A stretch of DNA of 32,000 bases from Pseudodesulfovibrio mercurii. Lineage in GTDB: Bacteria > Desulfobacterota > Desulfovibrionia > Desulfovibrionales > Desulfovibrionaceae. The stretch is taken from the NCBI RefSeq assembly GCF_000189295.2, contig NC_016803.1:2880001-2912000 (forward strand), given 5' to 3'. Made by a program: the position numbers and the translations under genes. Every line of letters starts with the position of its first letter. Positions within the stretch are counted from its first letter, which is position 1. Under the pieces are notes generated by a model that ran no database searches, was not told where the DNA came from, and saw only the letters and a program-made list of their open reading frames with translations. Below are positions 9,371 through 18,414 of this stretch, piece after piece.

Positions 9371-9949
9371 TCAGCGGACCAGGACCTCCACCCGCCGGTT
9401 GCGCGGCTCGGACCTGCCGTCCGGGGTGGGGATGAGCGGGTTTTCCTCGCCGTGGGAGGTCATCTCGATGATGTCCTCGGGCATGCCGCCCTTGACCAGC
9501 AGGTCGCGGACCTTTTCCGCGCGGCGCACGGACAGGTCGTAGTTGTACTGCTTCTCGCCCAGGGTGTCGGTGTGGCCGACGACCGACACGTCGCGGGAGG
9601 AGCGGCTGCGCCAGCTCTCGAGAATGTCCGGGAGGAGGGCCTTGGACTCGTCCGTGAGCCGGGTGGAGTCGCTGTGGAAGTGCAGGATGAAGCGGGCCGT
9701 GGGCAGGGGCTGGGCGGCCATGGCCGCGCCGAACTCGGACTGGACCTCGGCCTCGCTCAGGGTGGTCACCCTGGTGGTCCCGGTGACGGCCTGGTTGGCC
9801 TGGGTCAGGGTGGCGGTCCTGCCGCCTTCGGAGGTGACCGTGACCTCGCCCACGTGGCCGTCCAGGTCGGGCAGCAGGACGATGGTCTGGCCGCCGCCGC
9901 AACCGGCGAGCCACAGGCAGGCGGCGAGGATCATGGCGAATTTCTTCAT
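9371..9949 (-). CDS. OmpA-family lipoprotein (peptidoglycan-associated C-terminal OmpA domain)
   Basis: 192 aa. Lipobox LAGC after the signal peptide MKKFAMILAACLWLAGC. OmpA_C motif GHTD...NxxLSxRRA...RRVEV. Confidence 0.85.
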   Translation of the reverse strand: MKKFAMILAACLWLAGCGGGQTIVLLPDLDGHVGEVTVTSEGGRTATLTQANQAVTGTTRVTTLSEAEVQSEFGAAMAAQPLPTARFILHFHSDSTRLTDESKALLPDILESWRSRSSRDVSVVGHTDTLGEKQYNYDLSVRRAEKVRDLLVKGGMPEDIIEMTSHGEENPLIPTPDGRSEPRNRRVEVLVR

Positions 9950-9958
9950 GGCGCGCTC

Positions 9959-10462
9959 CTAATCGACCTTGATCAGGAACCGGGTGCCCCGGATTCCGAT
10001 GGTGGACAGGGGGGTCTCGACGGCCATGCTCCCGGGCGAGAGCTTGGCGATCCGGCCGGAGATGAACTGGACCGTGCCCTTGTTCACCCTGGTCAGGAAG
10101 TCGAGATTTTCATGGGCCGGGTCGAAGACGAACCTGTCGATGGTCACCCTGGAGCCGGGGCCCAGGGAGAGGAGCGTGTCGTCGCGGAAGATCACGCCCA
10201 GGGTGGCGTCCTTGCCGGTGATCAGGGTGTCGCCCTCAAGCAGGGGGTCGCCGACCACGGCGGGTTTTTGCTCGGTCATGCGTTCCACCAAGGCCTCGCC
10301 GGTCGCGGTCTTGATGGTTCCCACGACCTGGGCGCGGTCCACGGCCCCGGCCGGTCGGACCGGGCAGCAGCAGAACAGGAGAACAAGGGCCGCGATGACG
10401 GCCCACGGACGTCCGCCGCGATGCGGTCGGCCGTCGGGCGTTGAGGTTCGGGCTGTGTGCAT
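9959..10462 (-). CDS. FecR-domain protein (secreted or anchored)
   Basis: 167 aa, RBS GGAGG 8 nt upstream, hydrophobic N-terminus. FecR-like GDTLITGKDATLGVIFRDDTLLSLGPGSRVTIDRF. A 9-nt gap to the OmpA gene suggests an operon. Confidence 0.72.
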   Translation of the reverse strand: MHTARTSTPDGRPHRGGRPWAVIAALVLLFCCCPVRPAGAVDRAQVVGTIKTATGEALVERMTEQKPAVVGDPLLEGDTLITGKDATLGVIFRDDTLLSLGPGSRVTIDRFVFDPAHENLDFLTRVNKGTVQFISGRIAKLSPGSMAVETPLSTIGIRGTRFLIKVD

Positions 10463-10600: not shown

Positions 10601-10629
10601 TTGACACCTATACCCGGTATGGGTATATC
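10601..10629 (+). promoter_or_regulatory. Sigma70-type promoter of the cytochrome c / molybdoenzyme operon, with an embedded operator palindrome
   Basis: TTGACA (10601-10606), 17-nt spacer, TATATC (10624-10629). It sits in the only AT-rich stretch of the window. The inverted repeat TATACCC-GGTAT-GGGTATA (10609-10627) fills the spacer. Confidence 0.5.
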
Positions 10630-10749
10630 GCAATCAAAGGCCCCTACCGGGTACAGGTTATAATGTCCAAGGATTTAAACAGACCATATGGTCTGTAAGA
10701 GTGTGAAAACCGTTTGTCGAATGTGCAACACGTCAACTTTGGAGGGAGC

Positions 10750-11070
10750 ATGAAAAGCAAGCTCGTCCTGGCCGTGGCAACGGCCCTGATCACCGTCTTC
10801 GCCGTGTCCATGGCCTTTGCCATGGGCGGTGGCAACGCCCGCAAGGGCAAGTTCCTGTACCGCAAGAACTGCCGTTCCTGTCACGGCACCACCGCCAGCG
10901 ACATGAGCCCGGCGGACAAGACCCAGGCCGAATGGACGGCCCTGTTCTCCGACACGGGCAAGATCAAGTGCAGCCCGGACTGGACCGTCAACGAAAAGGA
11001 CCTGAACGACATCTTCACCTACCTGCACGACTACGCCAAGGACTCCCCGTCCCCGGCCAAGTGCAGCTAG
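10750..11070 (+). CDS. Periplasmic monohaem c-type cytochrome
   Basis: 106 aa from ATG 10750, with RBS GGAGGGA at 10741-10747. Signal peptide MKSKLVLAVATALITVFAVSMAFA and a single CRSCH haem-binding motif. Confidence 0.8.
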   Translation: MKSKLVLAVATALITVFAVSMAFAMGGGNARKGKFLYRKNCRSCHGTTASDMSPADKTQAEWTALFSDTGKIKCSPDWTVNEKDLNDIFTYLHDYAKDSPSPAKCS

Positions 11071-11254
11071 GGCAGTGCGGCCATGGCCGCGCCGGGTGTA
11101 TCCGGCGCGGCCCATGCGCCCTCGGGGAGGAGACCAGGGCGCAGCTCGACACAAACGGTTCCGCCCGCCCGAGCCGGGAAGCGGGGCGGGGGGAACCCCA
11201 TCCGACGACAGTGCGGACAGTTGGAGGTACATAGTGCCCAGTGCAAAGCAGACG

Positions 11255-13429
11255 ATGTCCCGTCGCGATTTCTTCCGGGCCTCCGGCCTGGTGGCGGCAG
11301 GGGCCTTGGGCGGCCCGGCCCTGCTCGGCGGCCTGAAGAAGGCCCATGCGGCATCGCCGGCCAAGCCCGCCTGGGATTCCAGGTTTTCGGCTTGCGACAT
11401 GTGTTTCAACAAGTGCGGGCTCATCGCCCGCGTCGAGGACGGGGTGGTCACGAAGCTCGATCCCAACCCCAAGTTCCTCAAGTCCCGAGGTATGCTCTGC
11501 GCGCGTGGCAACGCGGGCCTGGCCCAGGTCTACGACCCGGACCGCCTCAAGCACCCCCTGCTCAGGAAGGGCGCGCGCGGCGAAGGCAAGTGGCAGCGCA
11601 TCCCCTGGGACGAGGCCCTGGACATGGCCGCGGCCAGGATGGCCGAGGTCCGCGACAAGTATACCCCCTGCGGCCACCTGTTCACCGCGGGCACGGACCT
11701 GCACTCGCAGTTCGTGGGCCGGTTCGCCGAGGTCTACGGCTCGTTCAACGTGACCTCGCACGAATCCCTGTGCCTGGTCTCGGGCAGCCGCGCCTTCCTC
11801 GACACCTTCGGCGAGGTGCCCTTCGCGGACGTGCTCAATTCCAAGTACATCCTGATGGTCGGGGCCAACCGCTTCGAGGCGCTGGTCACCCCGGACTCCA
11901 TCGATCTGATGACCGCCATTCGCGAGAACGGCTGCAAGCTGGTCACGCTCGATCCGCGCTACACCAAGACCGCGGCCCTGTCCCACGAGTGGTATCCGGT
12001 CAGGCCGGGCACGGACATGGCCTTCATGCTCGCGCTGGCCCACGTGATCATCAACGAGAAGCTCTACGATCCCGCGTGGATCGCGGAGAAGACCTACGGC
12101 ATGGAGCAGCTCACGGCCCACGTGCAGCAGTACACGCCCGGCTTCGCGGCCGAGCAGTGCGGCATCCCGGCCGAGGCCATCACCCGCATGGCCCGCGAGC
12201 TGGCCGCGGCCGCCCCGGCCTCCATGGTCTACCCCGGCCGCCGCACCTCGGACTACGAGGACTCCACCCAGATCCGGCGCAGCTTCGCCATCGTCAACGG
12301 GCTGCTCGGCAACTGGGACAGGCCCGGCGGACTGCTGGCCGCGCGCCAGGTGGGCCTCAAGGGCGTGTCCTATGACGCCCCGTGGTACGACGAGAACAAG
12401 GAGGACCGCATCGACGCGGGCAAGGTGCCCATGATGTTCGAGCACGAGGGGTCCTTCCTGGTCACCCGCGACTCGGTCCTGGCCGACGATCCATATCCCA
12501 TCCGGGGCTGGTTCATCTACAAGACCAACCCCATGGGCACGGCCCCCAACCGGAAGAAGACCATCGAGATGATGAACAAGATGGACTTCGTCACCGTGGT
12601 GGACATCGCCATGTCCGACACGGCCTGGATGGCCGACCTGGTCCTGCCGTCCCAGTCCTACCTGGAGCGCGAGGACCCGTGTTCGGGCCTTCAGGGCTCA
12701 GTGGCCTGCGCCTGCGTCATCAAGCGCGACCCGGTCATCGCCCCCATGTACGAGTCCCGGTCCCTGTTCGACATCATGAAGGGCATCGCGGGCCGCCTGG
12801 AGCTGGGCGAGTACTTCGACTTCACCATCGACGAGTACCGCCGGCAGCAGACCCGCGAGATTCCCGAGGCGCTCGGCGTCATGGACCGCGACGGCGTGTA
12901 CTACAACCCGTCCAAGGTCTACGGCATCTACGACGGGCGCATCTACAAGACCCTGTCCAAGAAGGTCGAGCTGTACAACCAGCGCTACGAGCAGATGGGC
13001 ATCGACCCGCTGCCCAACTACACGCCCCCGGCCGGGCCGCCCGAGAACCGCTTCCGCATGGTCCTCGGCCGCAACGCCATGATCACCCAGACCTCCACGG
13101 CCAACAACGCGCTGCTGCACGAGTTCCTGCCCACCAACACCCTGTGGCTGAACACCGAGGCCGCCGGGAAGCTGGGCATCGGCGACGGCGACCTGGTCGA
13201 GGTCTCAAGCCCCGTGGGCAGCCAGGAGCTCAAGGCCGAGGTCACGGACAAGATCCGCCCGGACACCGTGTACATGCTCTCGGGGTACAACACCCTGTCC
13301 ACCATGCAGCATCTGTCCCACGGCAACGGGGCGTCCATCAACGATCTGCTGGACGACGACTACGACGCCGTCACCGGCAACGCGTCCATGCACACGACCT
13401 TTGTCACCGTAACAAGGAAGGTGGCGTAA
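11255..13429 (+). CDS. Tat-exported molybdopterin (Mo/W-bisPGD) oxidoreductase catalytic subunit, PhsA/PsrA-like (thiosulfate/polysulfide reductase family)
   Basis: 724 aa from ATG 11255. Twin-arginine signal MSRRDFFRASG...AHA. N-terminal 4Fe-4S motif CDMCFNKCG...C. Candidate Cys Mo-ligand in SHESLCLVSG. The size fits the Psr/Phs clade. Confidence 0.85.
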   Translation: MSRRDFFRASGLVAAGALGGPALLGGLKKAHAASPAKPAWDSRFSACDMCFNKCGLIARVEDGVVTKLDPNPKFLKSRGMLCARGNAGLAQVYDPDRLKHPLLRKGARGEGKWQRIPWDEALDMAAARMAEVRDKYTPCGHLFTAGTDLHSQFVGRFAEVYGSFNVTSHESLCLVSGSRAFLDTFGEVPFADVLNSKYILMVGANRFEALVTPDSIDLMTAIRENGCKLVTLDPRYTKTAALSHEWYPVRPGTDMAFMLALAHVIINEKLYDPAWIAEKTYGMEQLTAHVQQYTPGFAAEQCGIPAEAITRMARELAAAAPASMVYPGRRTSDYEDSTQIRRSFAIVNGLLGNWDRPGGLLAARQVGLKGVSYDAPWYDENKEDRIDAGKVPMMFEHEGSFLVTRDSVLADDPYPIRGWFIYKTNPMGTAPNRKKTIEMMNKMDFVTVVDIAMSDTAWMADLVLPSQSYLEREDPCSGLQGSVACACVIKRDPVIAPMYESRSLFDIMKGIAGRLELGEYFDFTIDEYRRQQTREIPEALGVMDRDGVYYNPSKVYGIYDGRIYKTLSKKVELYNQRYEQMGIDPLPNYTPPAGPPENRFRMVLGRNAMITQTSTANNALLHEFLPTNTLWLNTEAAGKLGIGDGDLVEVSSPVGSQELKAEVTDKIRPDTVYMLSGYNTLSTMQHLSHGNGASINDLLDDDYDAVTGNASMHTTFVTVTRKVA

Positions 13430-14178
13430 TGGCACAGCAACTCGCCATGGTCATCGATGCGGCCAAGTGCATCGACTGCAAGGGGTGCGTGGCCGCCTGC
13501 AAGGTGGCCAACAACGTGCCCGAGGGCCAGTTCCGCAATTGGATCAAGCACGCCGACGTTCCGGTCATGCCCGGCATCGCCGGGGCCAAGGCCCGGTTCC
13601 AGCCGGGGGCGTGCATGCACTGCGAGAACCCCACCTGCGTGACCGCCTGTCCCACGGGCGCGACCTACAAGGACCCGGAGACCGGGGTGGTCGTCATCGA
13701 CGAGACCCTGTGCATCGGCTGCGGCAACTGCATTCCGGCCTGTCCCTACGACGCCCGGTTCCGCAACCCGGTCACGCGCAAGGCGGACAAGTGCAACTAC
13801 TGCCCCGAGCGGCGCGCCGCCGGGCTGCCCCCCGCCTGCGTGGACACCTGTCCGACCAAGGCGCGGGTCTTCGGCGACATCAACGATCCGACCAGCGCGG
13901 CGGGCATCCTGTACCGCAAGAACCAGGAGCGGCTGACCCGCGTGGCGGCCCGGACCGACACCAAGCCGAACATGTACTATATCGGCGACCCCGGCCCCGA
14001 GGCCTGGGGGCGCGAGGCCGTGGTCCCCGCGTCCATGGTGGCCATGAAGGAGTCCGCGCCGTTCATCAAGGGCATCGTGGCCCTGTCCGGCCTGGGCGTC
14101 CTGGCCATGCTCGGCCGCCAGCTCTTCGCCGGTTCCGGCGACCCGCACGACAGCCACAAGGAGGACAGCGATGCCTAG
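13429..14178 (+). CDS. 4Fe-4S ferredoxin-type electron-transfer subunit with a C-terminal TM anchor (FdnH/HybA-like architecture)
   Basis: 249 aa. TAATG stop/start overlap with the catalytic subunit. Four Cys clusters (CIDCKGCVAAC, CMHCENPTCVTACP, CIGCGNCIPACP, CNYC...CVDTCP). Hydrophobic helix FIKGIVALSGLGVLAMLG near the C-terminus. Confidence 0.85.
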   Translation: MAQQLAMVIDAAKCIDCKGCVAACKVANNVPEGQFRNWIKHADVPVMPGIAGAKARFQPGACMHCENPTCVTACPTGATYKDPETGVVVIDETLCIGCGNCIPACPYDARFRNPVTRKADKCNYCPERRAAGLPPACVDTCPTKARVFGDINDPTSAAGILYRKNQERLTRVAARTDTKPNMYYIGDPGPEAWGREAVVPASMVAMKESAPFIKGIVALSGLGVLAMLGRQLFAGSGDPHDSHKEDSDA

Positions 14179-14902
14179 CCGGACCTACAAGCGGCACGAC
14201 CGCTCCGACATCTTCATCCACTGGTTCAACGCGGCCTGCTGGCTGCTGCTCCTGCTGACCGGCGTGGGGCTGATCCAGAACCCGGACGTGGACCCGTTCG
14301 GCTCGGGCTATCCGGCCTGGCTGCGCTCGGTGGTGGGCGGCGGGGGCAACCTGCTGGCCATCCACGAGTTCATCGGCCTGGCCTGGATCGCGGGCTTCGT
14401 CCTCTACCTGCTGGTCAACTTCAGGGGGGCCCGCTTCTTCCTGGCCGAGGTCTTCGCGGTCAGCCCGGCCCGTGACATGGGCTGGATGCTCAAGAAGATG
14501 GTCCTCATGACCCTGGGGCCCAAGGCTCTGAAGGCCGTGGGCGTCAGCCCGGACCTGCCGGACCAGGGGTACTACAACATGGGCCAGAAGGCCTTTGCCC
14601 AGGCCTCGGTGGTCGGCGGCGTCGTCATTGCCGCGACCGGCGTGATCATGTACCTGTCCGACCGCACCTTCGGGGCCGAGTCCACGGGCATGATCGGCTG
14701 GGCCGTGGCCCTGCACTTCATCAGTGTGGGGCTGGTCTTCGCGGGGCTGCTGGTGCACGTCTACATGGCGGCGGTGTCGCCCGAGGAGCGCCCCGGCTTC
14801 AAGTCCATGTTCACCGGCGTGGTCCCCGGCGACTACGCCCGGCATCACCACCGGCTTTGGTGGGAAAAGGTCAGAACCGAGCCCGAGCAGGGTTCGGAAT
14901 AG
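14171..14902 (+). CDS. Membrane b-type cytochrome subunit (FdnI/PhsC, Ni/Fe-hydrogenase cytochrome b family)
   Basis: 243 aa. 8-nt overlap (ATGCCTAG) with the FeS subunit and RBS AAGGAGGA. Several TM helices with conserved His (IFIHWFNAACW, AIHEFIGL, ALHFISVG...LLVHVYM). Confidence 0.8.
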   Translation: MPSRTYKRHDRSDIFIHWFNAACWLLLLLTGVGLIQNPDVDPFGSGYPAWLRSVVGGGGNLLAIHEFIGLAWIAGFVLYLLVNFRGARFFLAEVFAVSPARDMGWMLKKMVLMTLGPKALKAVGVSPDLPDQGYYNMGQKAFAQASVVGGVVIAATGVIMYLSDRTFGAESTGMIGWAVALHFISVGLVFAGLLVHVYMAAVSPEERPGFKSMFTGVVPGDYARHHHRLWWEKVRTEPEQGSE

Positions 14903-14967
14903 CGACATAGAGGCATCCGCCCCGGCTGGGGAGCGGAAGAAACCAATCATCAGGAAGGGAGTTTATC

Positions 14968-16059
14968 ATGCACAGGAAGTTGATTGCCGCGGCCATGCTG
15001 CTGGCGTTCGTCGTGACGGCCCTGGCCGTCCCGGCCATGGCCCAGGAGAAGCCGAAGTTCAAGCAGTTCCACTCCATCGTGGACTACAAGTTCGTGGCCC
15101 AGTATGCGAAGATGCCGCAGCCCAAGGGCGTCATGATCATCGACTCGCGGCCCTACAAGCCCAAGTACGTGGACGGCTACATCCCCACGGCCGTGTCCAT
15201 CCCGGCCAGCCAGTTCGACAAGATGACCGACAAGCTGCCCAAGGACAAGGGCGAGCTGCTCGTCTTCTACTGCGGCGGCCTGGACTGTCCCCTGTCCCAC
15301 AAGTCCGCCTTCGCGGCCGAGGCCCTGGGCTACACCAACGTCAAGGTCTACGCCGCCGGGTTCCCGGACTGGAAGAAGCACGCCCCGTATTCCTCCATCG
15401 GCCTGGAAAACCTCGCCGCGCGGATCAATGAGGGCGGCAACTACCTGCTCGTGGACGCGCGGCCCTACAAGAAGTTCCTGGAAGGGGCCATCCCGTCCGC
15501 CATCGGCATCCCCGAGCGCGACTTCGCGGCCAAGCGCGGCCTGCTGCCCGCCGACAAGGTCAACACCACGCTGATCTACTACTGCGGCGGCTACGCCTGC
15601 GCCCTGTCCCACAAGTCCGCGGTCATGGCCCGTTCGCTGGGCTACAAGAACGTGCTCGTGGCCGAGGCCGGCTACCCCGGCTGGAAGGAGATGTTCGGGG
15701 CCACGGACAGCGCCGTGGTCGCGGGCGAGGCCGAGGGCGCGGTGGACACCGAGTGGTTCCTGAAGACCATCAAGGAGAACCCGTCCGCCATCCTGCTCAT
15801 CGACGTGCGCGATCCCGAGGAGTATGCGGCCGGTCACTTCCCGTCCGCCATCAACATGCCCGTGGACATGGTCGAGAAGCAGGCCAAGGAGATCCCCACG
15901 GACAAGCCCATCGTCTTCTCCTGCGCCTCGGGCGCGCGTGCGGGCGAGGCCTTCTACCTGTTCAAGGATCTGCGTCCGGACGTGGAAAAGGTCTACTACC
16001 TGGAGGCCACCAACTCGTTTGGCGGCGACAACAGCTACGAGGTCCATCCCAACAAGTAG
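14968..16059 (+). CDS. Periplasmic protein with three tandem rhodanese domains (sulfurtransferase-like)
   Basis: 363 aa with signal peptide ending AMA-QE. Active-site loops are YCGGLDCPLSHK (domain 1), YCGGYACALSHK (domain 2) and SCASGARAGEA (domain 3). Confidence 0.85.
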   Translation: MHRKLIAAAMLLAFVVTALAVPAMAQEKPKFKQFHSIVDYKFVAQYAKMPQPKGVMIIDSRPYKPKYVDGYIPTAVSIPASQFDKMTDKLPKDKGELLVFYCGGLDCPLSHKSAFAAEALGYTNVKVYAAGFPDWKKHAPYSSIGLENLAARINEGGNYLLVDARPYKKFLEGAIPSAIGIPERDFAAKRGLLPADKVNTTLIYYCGGYACALSHKSAVMARSLGYKNVLVAEAGYPGWKEMFGATDSAVVAGEAEGAVDTEWFLKTIKENPSAILLIDVRDPEEYAAGHFPSAINMPVDMVEKQAKEIPTDKPIVFSCASGARAGEAFYLFKDLRPDVEKVYYLEATNSFGGDNSYEVHPNK

Positions 16060-16117
16060 GGATCGGCCATGGACGGCCGGGGTCGGCCCCGGCGTAAACA
16101 CTGGGCGGGGAGCGCGT

Positions 16118-17125
16118 ATGTCGAGAAACATCACCTGTATGGCATGGCTGCTCCTCGCCTCGTGCGTCCTGGCCGCCGCGCCCGCCCTGGCCGACGAGAA
16201 CGAGGTCTGGTGGGCGTCGGCCCAGGTCGAGGCCGCGCGCGACGACTACCATCTGATCGACGATGACGGTCTGCGGAAACTGCTCGACGACAAGACGGAC
16301 ATGGTCCTGCTCGACGCCCGGGCGGACTACGAGTTCGAGGCCGGGCACATCCCCGGCGCGGTCAATCTGGAGTTCGACCTGGGCGACGACCTGAATCTCT
16401 CCCCGGAAAAGCGCCGGACCCTGGCCTCCCTCGTCGGGCCGGACAAGGACCGGCTGCTGGTCATCTACTGCCGGAGCTTCAGGTGACTGCGCAGCTCCAT
16501 TGCGGCGCGCTGGGCAGCGCGTCTCGGCTACACCCGGATCTACCGGTACCCGGCGGGCTTCCACGGCTGGCGGGAGAGGCACCCCGACCGGATTGAGGGC
16601 AAGCCCGACGCGGTCCATGTCCTGGCCGTGGGCGACGACTTCCCCACCTGCCGGGTGGCGGTGCTCAATGGCGACGAGGACCGGAACTACCTGGAACTGC
16701 CCGAGGGGGCCAGGTTCCTGCAACTGTCCGAGCTCAAGGCGAGCTTCGTGCTCATCCAGCTGTACAACACCCTGTGCAACGACTGCGTGGCCGAGACCAA
16801 GATGCTGACGCGCTTCTTCAAGAAGGTCGAGGCGGACCCGGAGCTGGCCGGGACGCTCAAGATCATCGGCATCGGGGTGTACGACTCCAACCTGGCCGTG
16901 GTCCGCTTCCGCAAGCATTACGACGTGGCCTACCCGCTGTTCTCGGACAAGAGCGGGCAGATCTTCGAGTGCCTGGGCCAGGCCGAGCTGCCCCTGGCCT
17001 ACCTGGTCCGGGCGCGGGGCGACGGCACGTGGCGCATCGAATTGATCAAGCGGGGATACTTCGAGCCGGACGAACAGTTCCTGGACGTGCTCCGCTCGGC
17101 GGTCAGGCTGCCGCCCAGGGACTAG
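16118..17125 (+). CDS. Predicted selenoprotein: secreted rhodanese (C-X4-U loop) fused to a TlpA/ResA-like thioredoxin-fold domain (CNDC). In-frame TGA at 16484-16486 read as Sec123.
   Basis: Track ORFs 15824..16486 and 16628..17125 share one frame and are separated only by that TGA; I translated 16487-16627 and found no other stop. The residues after the TGA (LRSSIAARWAARLGYTRIYRYPAGFHGWRER) complete the rhodanese fold. Signal peptide MSRNITCMAWLLLASCVLAAAPALA. If the TGA is a true stop or a sequencing error, this is a truncated gene or a pseudogene. Confidence 0.62.
16499..16528 (+). promoter_or_regulatory. Candidate bacterial SECIS hairpin downstream of UGA 16484
   Basis: Stem 16504-16511 pairs with 16516-16523 (8 bp including one G-U) and extends by 16500-16502/16525-16527 across one mismatch. 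The apical loop GGGC starts 25 nt after the UGA, which fits the reported bacterial SECIS geometry (G-containing loop about 16-37 nt downstream). Confidence 0.45.
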
Positions 17126-17736
17126 CCCTCGGCCACGACCGGGAGCAGGGCCAGGATCAGGTCCGCCCCGGCCGAAAAGACCGGGTCGGGATCGGCCTGG
17201 GCCAGGGCGTCGCGGAAGCGGCCCACCCACGGGAGCATGACCTCGCCCGCGAACCGGGCCGCCTGGTCGGCGAACTCCGGGTCCCCGGACCAGCCCTCGG
17301 CGCAGAGGTGGAAGAGAAATTCCAGCTCCAGAGTCAGGTGGTCGGGCGGCTCGTTGGAGGGCAGCGAGATTTCGAGCCCGGCCTCGGCCAGGCGGTCGCG
17401 CATGGCCAGGGCGCTCCTGCCCATGGTCCGCCCCTCGGGGCCGTGGCAGGACTCGTACAGCGGGGCCGGGACGCCGCCCGGTCCGGCGATGAACAGGCGG
17501 ACGTACTCCGCCTCCAGCGGCGAGAAGTTTTCGGCCTCGGCATAGGGGGCAAGCGCCTCGTCGAGGGCCGACAGGGGGTCGGCCGGGAAGCCGGGAATTT
17601 CCTGGACACGGTCGAGGAGTTCGGGCACTCCATGGGTGGCCAGTTCGGCCCACGCATGTTCGTCCGGCCCCCGAAATACGGAGACGCAGAGCTCCATCAC
17701 ATTGAGCAGAAAGAGTTTCGAGTGGGAAATGGACAT
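17122..17736 (-). CDS. TorD/DmsD-family redox-enzyme maturation chaperone
   Basis: 204 aa from ATG 17736 (ATG 17697 is an alternative). Family motifs EAEYVRLFIAGPGGVPAPLYES and PPDHLTLELEFLFHL. Convergent with the selenoprotein gene; the two stops share CTAG. Confidence 0.75.
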   Translation of the reverse strand: MSISHSKLFLLNVMELCVSVFRGPDEHAWAELATHGVPELLDRVQEIPGFPADPLSALDEALAPYAEAENFSPLEAEYVRLFIAGPGGVPAPLYESCHGPEGRTMGRSALAMRDRLAEAGLEISLPSNEPPDHLTLELEFLFHLCAEGWSGDPEFADQAARFAGEVMLPWVGRFRDALAQADPDPVFSAGADLILALLPVVAEG

Positions 17737-17766
17737 GACTGGGACCCCCGGATATACTGCGAACGA

Positions 17767-17786
17767 TACCCTACGACAGTACGGTA
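17767..17786. promoter_or_regulatory. Candidate CsoR-family operator in the torD-like / regulator divergent region
   Basis: TACCCTAC-GACA-GTACGGTA, an 8-4-8 inverted repeat with one mismatch. It shares the TACCC/GGTA core with the palindrome at 10609-10627. Confidence 0.35.
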
Positions 17787-17836
17787 AAGAACACGGCAGG
17801 GCAATGGGAACATGGCCTGAGACAAAGGAGAACGAG

Positions 17837-18130
17837 ATGGACGACCACCTGAGCGCCGAGGAACAGGCCCTGAAGAAGAACGTGTTGTCACGCATGAAGC
17901 GCATCGAAGGACAGGTGCGCGGCATCCAGGGCATGATCGAATCCGGCAAGGAGTGCCAGGACATCCTGGTCCAGGTGCGGGCCGTGCGCTCGGCCCTCCA
18001 GTCGGCCAACAAGCTGATCCTCAAGCGCTACCTGCTCAGGTGTTACGCCGAGTCCGTGGAGAGCGGCCAGGACGCCAAGGATTCCCTGGAAAAGTTCATC
18101 TCCGTGGTCACCGGCTTCATCGAAGGCTGA
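17837..18130 (+). CDS. CsoR/RcnR-family (DUF156) repressor with Cys40-Tyr65-Cys69 at the sensing positions (CstR-like, no His ligand)
   Basis: 97 aa from ATG 17837, with RBS AAGGAG at 17825-17830. RIEGQVRGIQGMIESGKECQDIL...LKRYLLRC aligns without gaps to the C36/H61/C65 spacing of M. tuberculosis CsoR (25 and 29 residues). Confidence 0.85.
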   Translation: MDDHLSAEEQALKKNVLSRMKRIEGQVRGIQGMIESGKECQDILVQVRAVRSALQSANKLILKRYLLRCYAESVESGQDAKDSLEKFISVVTGFIEG

Positions 18131-18156
18131 CGTATCGAACAATCTGGAGCAACTGA

Positions 18157-18414
18157 ATGAAAAAACTGTTTCTAGCACTGGCATTCGCCCTGCTTTTCTG
18201 CCAGCCCGTGGCCGCGAAGACCAACTACAACGTCTGCTTCCATTCCCTGGACGCGGACGTGGACGGCCGCATGTCCAAGGGCGAGTTTCTGGTGGCCTTT
18301 TCCGACGGCGACACCTCGGTCTTCGACCAGGCCGACGCCAACCACGACGGCTCGGTGACCCACGAGGAGTGGGAGGCCTACAAGGAAGCCCAGGGCTTCG
18401 AGGACCACGAGTAG
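18157..18414 (+). CDS. Secreted small EF-hand calcium-binding protein
   Basis: 85 aa. Signal peptide MKKLFLALAFALLFCQPVAA. Two EF-hand loops, DADVDGRMSKGEF and DANHDGSVTHEEW. It starts 27 nt after the regulator gene. Confidence 0.72.
   Translation: MKKLFLALAFALLFCQPVAAKTNYNVCFHSLDADVDGRMSKGEFLVAFSDGDTSVFDQADANHDGSVTHEEWEAYKEAQGFEDHE

Follow-up and report, generated by a model that had tools for sequence, protein, structure and literature searches.

The nearest described relatives of the system considered here are the PhsABC enzyme of Salmonella and other enterobacteria, the PsrABC enzyme represented by Wolinella succinogenes and by the T. thermophilus structure 2VPW, and the SrrABCDEF enzyme of Bacillus selenitireducens. 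In Wolinella, Sud hands polysulfide sulfur to Psr; the srr operon, found in a Gram-positive organism and having a PsrC-like anchor, also includes rhodanese-domain genes. Here we analyze a stretch of 32,000 nucleotides from Pseudodesulfovibrio mercurii (assembly GCF_000189295.2, contig NC_016803.1, positions 2,880,001 to 2,912,000 of the forward strand), which we call the window and whose own numbering we use throughout. It carries a gene cluster in which a predicted molybdenum or tungsten enzyme with a twin-arginine translocation (Tat) signal is encoded together with a cytochrome c, a triple rhodanese, a rhodanese-redoxin selenoprotein and a CsoR-family regulator. We propose, tentatively and with slightly less than even confidence, that the cluster encodes a sulfane-sulfur-responsive periplasmic Phs/Psr-type enzyme that would reduce sulfur presented to it by carrier proteins.

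The cluster resembles PhsABC in its Tat-exported, Cys-ligated molybdenum-bis(pyranopterin guanine dinucleotide) (Mo-bisPGD) subunit, its four-cluster iron-sulfur (FeS) subunit, its PF01292-class cytochrome b and its order A-B-C. It differs from PhsABC in that the cytochrome b is nearer to FdnI than to PhsC, the FeS subunit carries a C-terminal membrane helix, and the operon goes beyond the PhsABC set with a dedicated cytochrome c, a regulator of the CsoR family, a TorD chaperone, a redoxin and rhodanese domains, four in number. With PsrABC and Sud it shares secreted rhodaneses encoded with the reductase, which suggests a hand-over of sulfur by analogy. The rhodaneses here, however, are multi-domain proteins with C-x4-C/U loops (U, selenocysteine), a cytochrome c and a redoxin are added, and the place of the haem-free, NrfD-type PsrC is taken by a dihaem cytochrome b. 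No NrfD-family (PsrC-type) gene was found in the cluster, whose sole membrane subunit is this PF01292 cytochrome b of the FdnI/PhsC type; in its anchor the cluster differs from the Wolinella Psr, invoked as the model in an original prediction made from the sequence of this stretch. For Srr we know of no cytochrome c or redoxin. Our comparison with that enzyme goes by its description only, and what it shares with the cluster is the catalytic lineage (PMC7331816).

The MOLY cluster (MolyABC), a proposed sulfur-disproportionation system of Desulfobacterota, combines Psr/Phs/Ttr-like A and B subunits with a TorD-like chaperone and has no membrane subunit (PMC9676032, PMC12998232). Its defining genome, Thermosulfurimonas F29, is without a clear rhodanese (PMC9676032). 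A cytochrome c stands outside the MOLY definition. Likened by architecture, the MOLY skeleton fits soluble relatives of the present operon (type II below); the version in the window differs in being membrane-anchored.

On the regulatory side, the closest parallel is the cst/CstR system of S. aureus and Enterococcus faecalis, which also pairs a two-Cys CsoR-family repressor devoid of the Cu-ligand His with a GC-core palindromic operator. The cst operon is rich in rhodanese domains, and its enzymes SQR, CstA and CstB are cytoplasmic or membrane-bound and oxidative. Here, by contrast, a periplasmic molybdoenzyme system would be controlled, and the missing His is replaced by Tyr, as against Asn in entry 7MQ1.

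The candidate carrier proteins also have partial precedents. TsoB, the only curated family with a C-x4-[Cys/Sec]-type loop geometry, carries a U-x4-U loop in its N-terminal rhodanese domain, to which a thiol-disulfide module is fused (PMC13188914), and loop geometry alone is what it shares with the cluster. Both rhodanese proteins match the TsoB model (NF045694) best, at 102-105 bits, but its cutoff is 805, and the TsoB module is a DsbD-like membrane one whereas the redoxin here is soluble. The Geobacter protein MccSep, which cleaves polysulfide by means of selenocysteine and a His/Cys haem, is a precedent for selenocysteine-dependent S-S cleavage of polysulfide, but it is a pentahaem protein with no Mo subunit (PMC13510729).

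Rhodanese genes beside Psr/Phs-like reductases are already common, as in a Bacteroidota locus, an operon of D. alkaliphilus and Srr. What appears to be new as a combination is a Cys-rich cytochrome c, C-x4-Cys/Sec loops that switch between the two residues in two proteins, a fused redoxin, a co-occurring FdnHI-like anchor and cytochrome b, and a CstR-like repressor with its operator, all in genes that carry generic annotations. By default, the Phs/Psr-type enzymes of sulfate reducers are labelled 'thiosulfate/polysulfide reductase', in genomes and metagenomes that number in the thousands, and models of the sulfur cycle draw on these labels. Here such a label would cover a distinct conserved module that has its own cytochrome c and rhodanese carriers based on Se or Cys, joined in Desulfovibrionales by a probable persulfide sensor. 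The Bacteroidota locus, on a plasmid of Chondrinema litorale (L082, 5833-11770), encodes a PsrABC with an NrfD-type anchor followed by two YeeE/YedE and two rhodanese genes, and is an independent case of a Psr-like reductase tied to sulfur carriers and transporters.

The catalytic subunit, its anchor and their conservation

Conservation was assessed in a set of 80 related loci by tblastn with all window proteins. Among NCBIfam models the catalytic subunit is matched best by the PhsA equivalog, at 516.1 bits, which falls short of the cutoff of 694. The other models score DmsA/YnfE 242, Fdh-alpha 233, ArrA 174 and TtrA 80 bits, and all non-chalcogen family models (DmsA, Fdh, Nar, Arr, Ttr) stay at or below 242 bits, under half of the PhsA score. 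The closest solved structure is PsrA of T. thermophilus (2VPW), at 380 bits over residues 1-719, and the next match in the Protein Data Bank (PDB) reaches 185. Identity to a plasmid-borne enterobacterial PhsA is 30%. The FS0 cysteines C47, C50, C54 and C82 and the presumed Mo ligand C173, which aligns to the Cys of the PhsA HASTC motif, are invariant in 80/80 sequences; Cys is the metal ligand listed for three lineages, Psr/Phs/Srr, Arr/Arx and Ttr (PMC7331816). We placed the lineage by these score gaps in family models and PDB matches, with enterobacterial PhsA and a Bacteroidota PsrABC-like locus as reference sequences. By this measure of sequence likeness, the catalytic subunit is a separate family within the PsrA/PhsA/SrrA lineage, which agrees with its original designation as PhsA/PsrA-like.

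In published trees the functions of PsrA, PhsA, SrrA and archaeal SreA are inseparable within one lineage (PMC7331816, PMC10100899, PMC13047784), so phylogeny cannot yield the substrate; the original prediction had likewise held that the substrate cannot be read from the sequence, and on this we concur. The characterised lineage members named in PMC7331816 and PMC10100899 all reduce sulfur or selenium species. Orthologues carry the JGI label 'thiosulfate reductase/polysulfide reductase chain A'.

The most likely start codon of the catalytic subunit is GTG 11234: a GGAGG lies 6 nt upstream of it, at 11223-11227, and the resulting protein has 731 aa, as in most orthologues. The alternative ATG at 11255, which corresponds to the 724 aa predicted at first, is without a ribosome-binding site. 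The GTG start adds 7 residues before the twin-arginine motif.

The FeS subunit is 41% identical to PhsB, and its 16 cluster cysteines are near-invariant among related sequences. In the cytochrome b, the transmembrane histidines H17, H65, H182 and H196, which would bind the two haems b, are invariant in 34/34 sequences. Its best curated model is that of the formate dehydrogenase gamma subunit (TIGR01583), at 88 bits and under the cutoff; alignment to a plasmid-borne 'thiosulfate reductase cytochrome B subunit' (PhsC) reached a BLASTP E of 0.007 over 58 residues only.

The gene arrangement recurs in dozens of the 80 loci, far beyond chance. Throughout the Desulfovibrionales loci the order is cytochrome c, Mo subunit, FeS subunit, cytochrome b, triple rhodanese, rhodanese-redoxin protein and convergent TorD, and the catalytic subunit is 92-94% identical in Pseudodesulfovibrio indicus, P. 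karagichevae, 'Desulfovibrio caledoniensis' and related metagenome sequences. The Desulfarculales and the NaphS2 group keep the same order without the regulator, with TorD upstream in a few loci. Most loci devoid of cytochrome b read cytochrome c, Mo subunit, FeS subunit, rhodanese and TorD; these come mainly from Desulfobacterales and unclassified metagenome-assembled genomes (MAGs), with one from SAR324. The C-terminal helix of the FeS subunit is present in every locus with a cytochrome b match and, without a cytochrome b, in one locus only (L060); the FeS subunits of the remaining cytochrome b-less loci are about 205 aa long and have no helix. Because the helix tracks the presence of cytochrome b, we distinguish two predicted architectures, a membrane-bound, quinone-linked type I, to which the window belongs, and a soluble type II. 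TorD occurs in most loci of both, usually convergent and downstream. The common core, as far as gene content indicates, is cytochrome c, Mo subunit, FeS subunit, a rhodanese and TorD.

About 53 of the 80 loci have a rhodanese gene beside that of the reductase, and they are spread over Desulfovibrionales, Desulfarculales, Desulfobacterales and SAR324, so that the pairing on which the original prediction leaned is conserved in relatives. The subunit combination, called unusual there, is not peculiar to this genome: this is a widespread, conserved operon type of Desulfobacterota, of which the copy in D. alaskensis G20 has a reported mutant phenotype.

Candidate sulfur carriers, cytochrome c and regulator

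Domains 1 and 2 of the triple rhodanese carry C-x4-C loops (CGGLDC and CGGYAC) and domain 3 a canonical CASGAR loop; the C-G-G-x-x-C loop is conserved across type I loci. The third domain shows a weak likeness to Sud (1QXN, E = 0.002). In eight type II loci that were read through, the second Cys position of the loop is an in-frame TGA in both rhodanese domains, and the protein has a lipobox. The type II triple rhodanese is thus predicted to be a double-selenocysteine lipoprotein, which plain open reading frame (ORF) reading splits at the TGA codons. In these loci (L022, L035, L053, L057, L058, L066, L070 and L080) the gene follows that of the FeS subunit, and the TGA contexts are FYCxGPT*KLSH and FYCxGYT*KLSH.

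The fusion protein combines a rhodanese loop, YCRSFR-U-LRS, with a linker Cys (FPTCR) and a TlpA/ResA-like redoxin domain with CNDC. In relatives, the selenocysteine codon is TGA in 21 loci and TGC in 12, with the redoxin domain continuing in frame, and NCBI lists the orthologue in the close relative GCA_050252735.1 as one gene of 335 aa. A SECIS (selenocysteine insertion sequence)-like hairpin begins 20 nt after the UGA and overlaps the conserved AARWAAR peptide. Among Desulfovibrionales, 6-8 of its 8 pairs are kept in selenocysteine genes (n = 14) as against 1-7 in cysteine genes (n = 7; Mann-Whitney p = 3e-4). Its folding energy is no better than that of shuffled sequences (minimum free energy (MFE) z-score 0.58) and it matched no Rfam family, so the selenocysteine call rests mainly on the alternation of selenocysteine with cysteine. 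We conclude that the gene is a single predicted UGA-selenocysteine gene, which bears out the selenocysteine rhodanese-thioredoxin fusion of the original prediction. The C-x4-U loop is conserved among orthologues, as are the FPxCR cysteine and the CxxC outside Maridesulfovibrio, and the C-x4-[Cys/Sec] loop is the apparent hallmark of the rhodaneses in this system. The fusion protein was also considered as a lipoprotein; this was rejected as a general feature, the lipobox-like motif LASC not being conserved in orthologues.

The family to which the cytochrome c belongs is small and tightly conserved and has no annotation beyond 'c-type cytochrome'; the gene lies directly upstream of that for the Mo subunit in nearly all related loci. 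Invariant residues include CxxCH, C74, W78 and the C-terminal DSPxPAKC, in which C105 is always the penultimate residue; no conserved Met or second His was found among the orthologues. Besides the signal-peptide helix 2-22, an AlphaFold2 model (mean predicted local distance difference test score, pLDDT, 77) shows three helices, over precursor residues 30-41, 59-67 and 82-98, and a Foldseek search with it returned weak cytochrome c6-like matches only (E > 1), which support the fold class. In class I cytochromes, the Met ligand sits in the loop before the C-terminal helix. Cys74 occupies the corresponding loop, before the last long helix of the model, and a His/Cys haem ligated through Cys74 is therefore possible. 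The Cys pair (C74, and C105 in the disordered DSPxPAKC tail) recalls His/Cys haems and the swinging arm of SoxY.

Upstream of the cytochrome c gene, the hexamers TTGACA and TATATC form a putative sigma-70 promoter of the operon. They were read directly, a consensus scan having skipped the site because the -10 hexamer ends in C. Overlapping them is a perfect palindrome, ATACCC-GGTAT-GGGTAT (ATACCCGGTATGGGTAT), which is unique in the window where 0.01 occurrences are expected by chance. The motif TACCC-N5-GGGTA is found 48-155 nt upstream of the cytochrome c ATG in 17/17 loci in which a regulator gene is present and the sequence upstream is available. It occurs without a regulator match in three Desulfovibrionales loci only, namely on the truncated contigs L013 and L048 and in L020, where no CsoR match was found in the DNA examined. 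The motif is absent upstream of cytochrome c in the orders that have no regulator. Near the regulator gene itself no second operator with N5 spacing was found; a promoter-like site lies ahead of that gene, at 17730-17758.

An alignment with the CsoR of G. thermodenitrificans (4M1P) and with entry 7MQ1 shows that the regulator retains Cys40 and Cys69 and has Tyr65 in place of the CsoR Cu-ligand His, as do 19/19 orthologues. Two conserved cysteines with the Cu-ligand His replaced are the CstR pattern. Together with the co-occurring operator, this upholds the original assignment as CstR-like. There is strong comparative evidence that regulator and palindrome are a repressor-operator pair, and the regulator probably senses persulfide.

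Proposed mechanism and its rivals

Based on these likenesses, we propose a core that faces the periplasm and consists of the Tat-exported catalytic subunit, with molybdenum or tungsten as its metal, the four-cluster FeS subunit with its anchor helix, and the dihaem cytochrome b. The substrate would probably be sulfane sulfur (polysulfide, persulfide, S0-derived sulfur, possibly thiosulfate) held on protein carriers and not a free anion. The carrier loops, C-x4-C in the triple rhodanese and C-x4-selenocysteine in the fusion protein, would take up this sulfur to form a persulfide or an S-S(n)-Se bridge, the second chalcogen sitting five residues past the catalytic Cys. The fused CxxC redoxin domain would resolve the selenenylsulfide, and reduction of the sulfur so delivered would yield sulfide at the Mo site. 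Electrons could reach the Mo site from menaquinol via the cytochrome b and FeS subunits, from the periplasmic cytochrome pool via the monohaem cytochrome c, or by both routes. The CstR-like repressor, seated on the promoter palindrome, would let go once sulfane sulfur modifies its cysteines. Gene content, topology signals, cofactor ligands, the alternation of selenocysteine and cysteine, the kept gene order and the joint occurrence of operator and regulator are observed in the sequences. We infer what the enzyme acts on, which way its electrons run, how sulfur is passed on and what the repressor responds to. A thioredoxin serves as acceptor in the case of GlpE. If carrier-bound sulfane sulfur is the substrate, the system bears on how sulfate reducers cope with or make use of S0 and polysulfide, on the periplasmic electron route to menaquinone, and on the spending of selenium on rhodaneses.

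The orthologous cluster of D. alaskensis G20 lies at 690-708 kb of CP000112, under the consecutive accessions ABB37477-37484. Literature listings describe Dde_0680 as a 'cytochrome b/b6 domain protein' and Dde_0681 as an 'Fe-S cluster hydrogenase component'. Because these two fit the cytochrome b and FeS genes by gene order, position and consecutive accessions, we infer that the cluster is Dde_0676-0683, with Dde_0680 the cytochrome b gene and Dde_0681 the FeS gene. The abstract of Krumholz 2015 reportedly describes a complex that contains a rhodanese and is conserved in sulfate-reducing Deltaproteobacteria. According to a passage in a review that cites this work (PMC8586430), the Dde_0681 mutant grows normally with thiosulfate or sulfite and shows no syntrophic growth.

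Several observations weigh against a dedicated sulfane-sulfur reductase. A His/Met monohaem cytochrome c would have too high a potential to donate electrons to polysulfide or thiosulfate. Three loci from Maridesulfovibrio and a Desulfovibrio sp. MAG (L010, L011 and L069) keep the C-x4-U loop, but the linker Cys of FPxCR and the CxxC are both gone, so the redoxin step would be dispensable or replaced in that group. The FdnHI-like anchor, a helix-bearing FeS subunit with a dihaem cytochrome b, is most typical of quinone-reducing dehydrogenases, PhsC excepted. The CstR of S. aureus controls a sulfide-oxidation operon, and the regulator therefore leaves the direction of the reaction unfixed. Finally, the same passage of the review has the Dde_0681 mutant growing poorly on H2 or lactate with sulfate (PMC8586430), a phenotype that a dedicated sulfane-sulfur reductase does not predict.

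The last three of these points also favor the strongest rival, in which the system runs in the oxidative direction. Here the Mo enzyme would oxidize periplasmic sulfide or carrier-bound reduced sulfur to rhodanese-held sulfane sulfur, passing electrons to menaquinone through an Fdn-type redox loop that generates proton-motive force (pmf), to cytochrome c, or to both; it would supply menaquinol for Qmo/adenosine 5'-phosphosulfate (APS) reductase, possibly as part of an electron cycle that sulfur mediates in the periplasm. The step that depends on menaquinol is APS reduction, in line with a defect described as specific to sulfate. In addition, a rhodanese/Mo-oxidoreductase operon of D. alkaliphilus is highly expressed during sulfide oxidation (PMC5516251), and the soluble type II relatives have cytochrome c as their only possible partner. 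However, the orthology of the D. alkaliphilus operon is not established, and no dehydrogenase is found among the characterised PsrA/PhsA/SrrA members (PMC10100899). Oxidation of sulfide would be futile in a sulfide-producing cell unless tightly regulated, and it would be unusual for an enzyme to be induced by what it produces, here sulfane sulfur. The Dde_0681 phenotype, moreover, is known second-hand and could be polar or indirect; a pooled G20 fitness study did not single these genes out, and its supplements hold no mention of Dde_0678-0683. On balance we consider the oxidative direction unlikely, though far from negligible.

A more speculative elaboration, which we regard as rather improbable, takes protein-bound sulfane sulfur as the true substrate of the enzyme family and makes the cytochrome c part of the relay. 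The cytochrome could have a His/Cys haem ligated through Cys74, and its penultimate Cys, C105, on the disordered DSPxPAKC tail could act as a SoxY-like swinging arm that carries persulfide, in series with the rhodaneses. A sulfur relay of this kind in the periplasm would link the pool of menaquinone with sulfide and the cytochromes there and, if real, could explain the impaired sulfate respiration and syntrophic H2 uptake of the G20 mutant.

The cluster could instead encode a plain respiratory thiosulfate reductase, PhsABC, with the rhodaneses as accessory thiosulfate sulfurtransferases and with the cytochrome b permitting pmf-driven oxidation of menaquinol as in Salmonella. The PhsA equivalog as best family match, the agreement in architecture (A, B and a PF01292 cytochrome b), the FeS identity to PhsB and the JGI label all point this way. 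Nevertheless, the PhsA score lies under its cutoff, the catalytic subunit is only 30% identical to PhsA, and the cytochrome b is barely PhsC-like. Phs operons are also without a persulfide-type regulator, a selenocysteine-redoxin relay and a dedicated cytochrome c. The normal growth of the Dde_0681 mutant on thiosulfate, as given in that review passage (PMC8586430), argues against such an enzyme as well, and the mild thiosulfate fitness defect of G20 maps to a different pair, Dde_1076:1075 (PMC4215793). We therefore judge this explanation improbable.

Still poorer is the case for an Srr-type respiratory or detoxifying reductase of selenite (or tellurite), in which selenium handling would fall to the rhodaneses, with the Sec/Cys loop as the binding site; we hold this to be very unlikely. 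In its favor, the B. selenitireducens srr operon has rhodanese genes, and both selenite and tellurite react with CstR in vitro. SrrA is placed in the same lineage as PsrA and PhsA (PMC7331816), and the rhodanese-like ExtH of Geobacter is linked to selenite in a passage of PMC5877670 and in a work referenced by PMC13510729. Yet no sequence feature is specific to a selenium substrate, and the cluster is core-conserved in many marine sulfate reducers, where sulfur species are orders of magnitude more abundant than selenium.

A non-chalcogen substrate (formate, nitrate, dimethyl sulfoxide or trimethylamine N-oxide, arsenate), with the rhodaneses as unrelated neighbors, is scarcely credible: the G20 catalytic orthologue was formerly annotated 'nitrate reductase' and the FeS and cytochrome b subunits resemble generic parts of complex iron-sulfur molybdoenzymes, but such family models reach less than half of the PhsA score, PDB matches other than PsrA stay at or below 185 bits, the presumed metal ligand is a Cys of the type found in the Psr/Phs/Srr, Arr/Arx and Ttr lineages (PMC7331816), and rhodanese adjacency is conserved over four orders.

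Layout of the locus

The ORF listing and Pfam/NCBIfam scans give nine genes at 10750-18414 (Table 1). Every gene named in the original prediction is present at its predicted place, and the gene contents stand; the count of ten does not, because the ORFs on either side of the TGA are one selenoprotein gene.

Table 1. Genes and other features of the cluster, in window coordinates.
Feature	Position	Strand	Characteristics
Putative sigma-70 promoter	10601-10629	+	-35 TTGACA 10601-10606, 17-nt spacer, -10 TATATC 10624-10629
Operator palindrome, CsoR-family type	10610-10626	.	Overlaps promoter spacer and -10
Monohaem cytochrome c, 106 aa	10750-11070	+	Sec-type signal peptide, single CxxCH (CRSCH), PF13442
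Structured intergenic spacer, cytochrome c / Mo subunit	11066-11240	+	Three GC-rich hairpins
Mo/W-bisPGD catalytic subunit	11234-13429	+	Tat signal RRDFF; PF04879 + PF00384 + PF01568
4x[4Fe-4S] subunit, C-terminal transmembrane helix	13429-14178	+	PF13247
Dihaem cytochrome b anchor, FdnI/PhsC class	14171-14902	+	PF01292
Periplasmic triple rhodanese	14968-16059	+	Three PF00581 stretches
Predicted rhodanese-redoxin selenoprotein, signal peptide	16118-17125	+	PF00581 + PF00578; in-frame TGA 16484-16486
Predicted selenocysteine UGA + SECIS-like hairpin	16484-16523	+	UGA 16484-16486; hairpin 16504-16523, 8 bp, GGGC loop 16512-16515
TorD/DmsD-family maturation chaperone, convergent	17122-17738	-	PF02613; NCBIfam TorD 54 bits
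CsoR-family (DUF156) regulator, CstR-like	17837-18130	+	PF02583
Small secreted EF-hand protein, 85 aa, two EF-hand loops	18157-18414	+	EF-hand Pfam matches

Strand, overlaps and conserved synteny make a single operon plausible. The Mo and FeS genes overlap in TAATG at 13427-13431 and the FeS and cytochrome b genes in ATGCCTAG at 14171-14178, and the TorD gene overlaps the end of the selenoprotein gene by 4 nt. The overlaps cited for a single operon from 10750 to 17125 were borne out; the cytochrome c gene is followed by a strongly structured spacer of 164 nt before the reductase genes. The spacer folds at an MFE of -101.6 kcal/mol, as against -80.6 +/- 4.0 for shuffles (z = -5.3), and its first hairpin is an 11-bp perfect GC stem directly after the cytochrome c stop codon. 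It may act as an intra-operon attenuator or mRNA stabiliser that sets the ratio of cytochrome c to reductase.

The EF-hand protein is 86-88% identical in L001 and L006 alone, the two closest genomes, and weak or absent elsewhere. Because it is conserved only in these closest relatives, its gene is probably peripheral and outside the core of the system. Neither a selenocysteine tRNA nor sel genes were found in the window.

Divergent and upstream of the cluster, at 9371-10462 on the minus strand, are genes for an OmpA-domain lipoprotein and a FecR-domain protein, also kept in the close relative L083, which appear unrelated to the system. In D. alaskensis G20 (L085, 5496-7151), a divergent gene upstream of the cluster encodes a 551-aa FmdE/zinc-finger/MoCF_biosynth fusion, not found at the matching position in the window, which may be a cofactor-related accessory.

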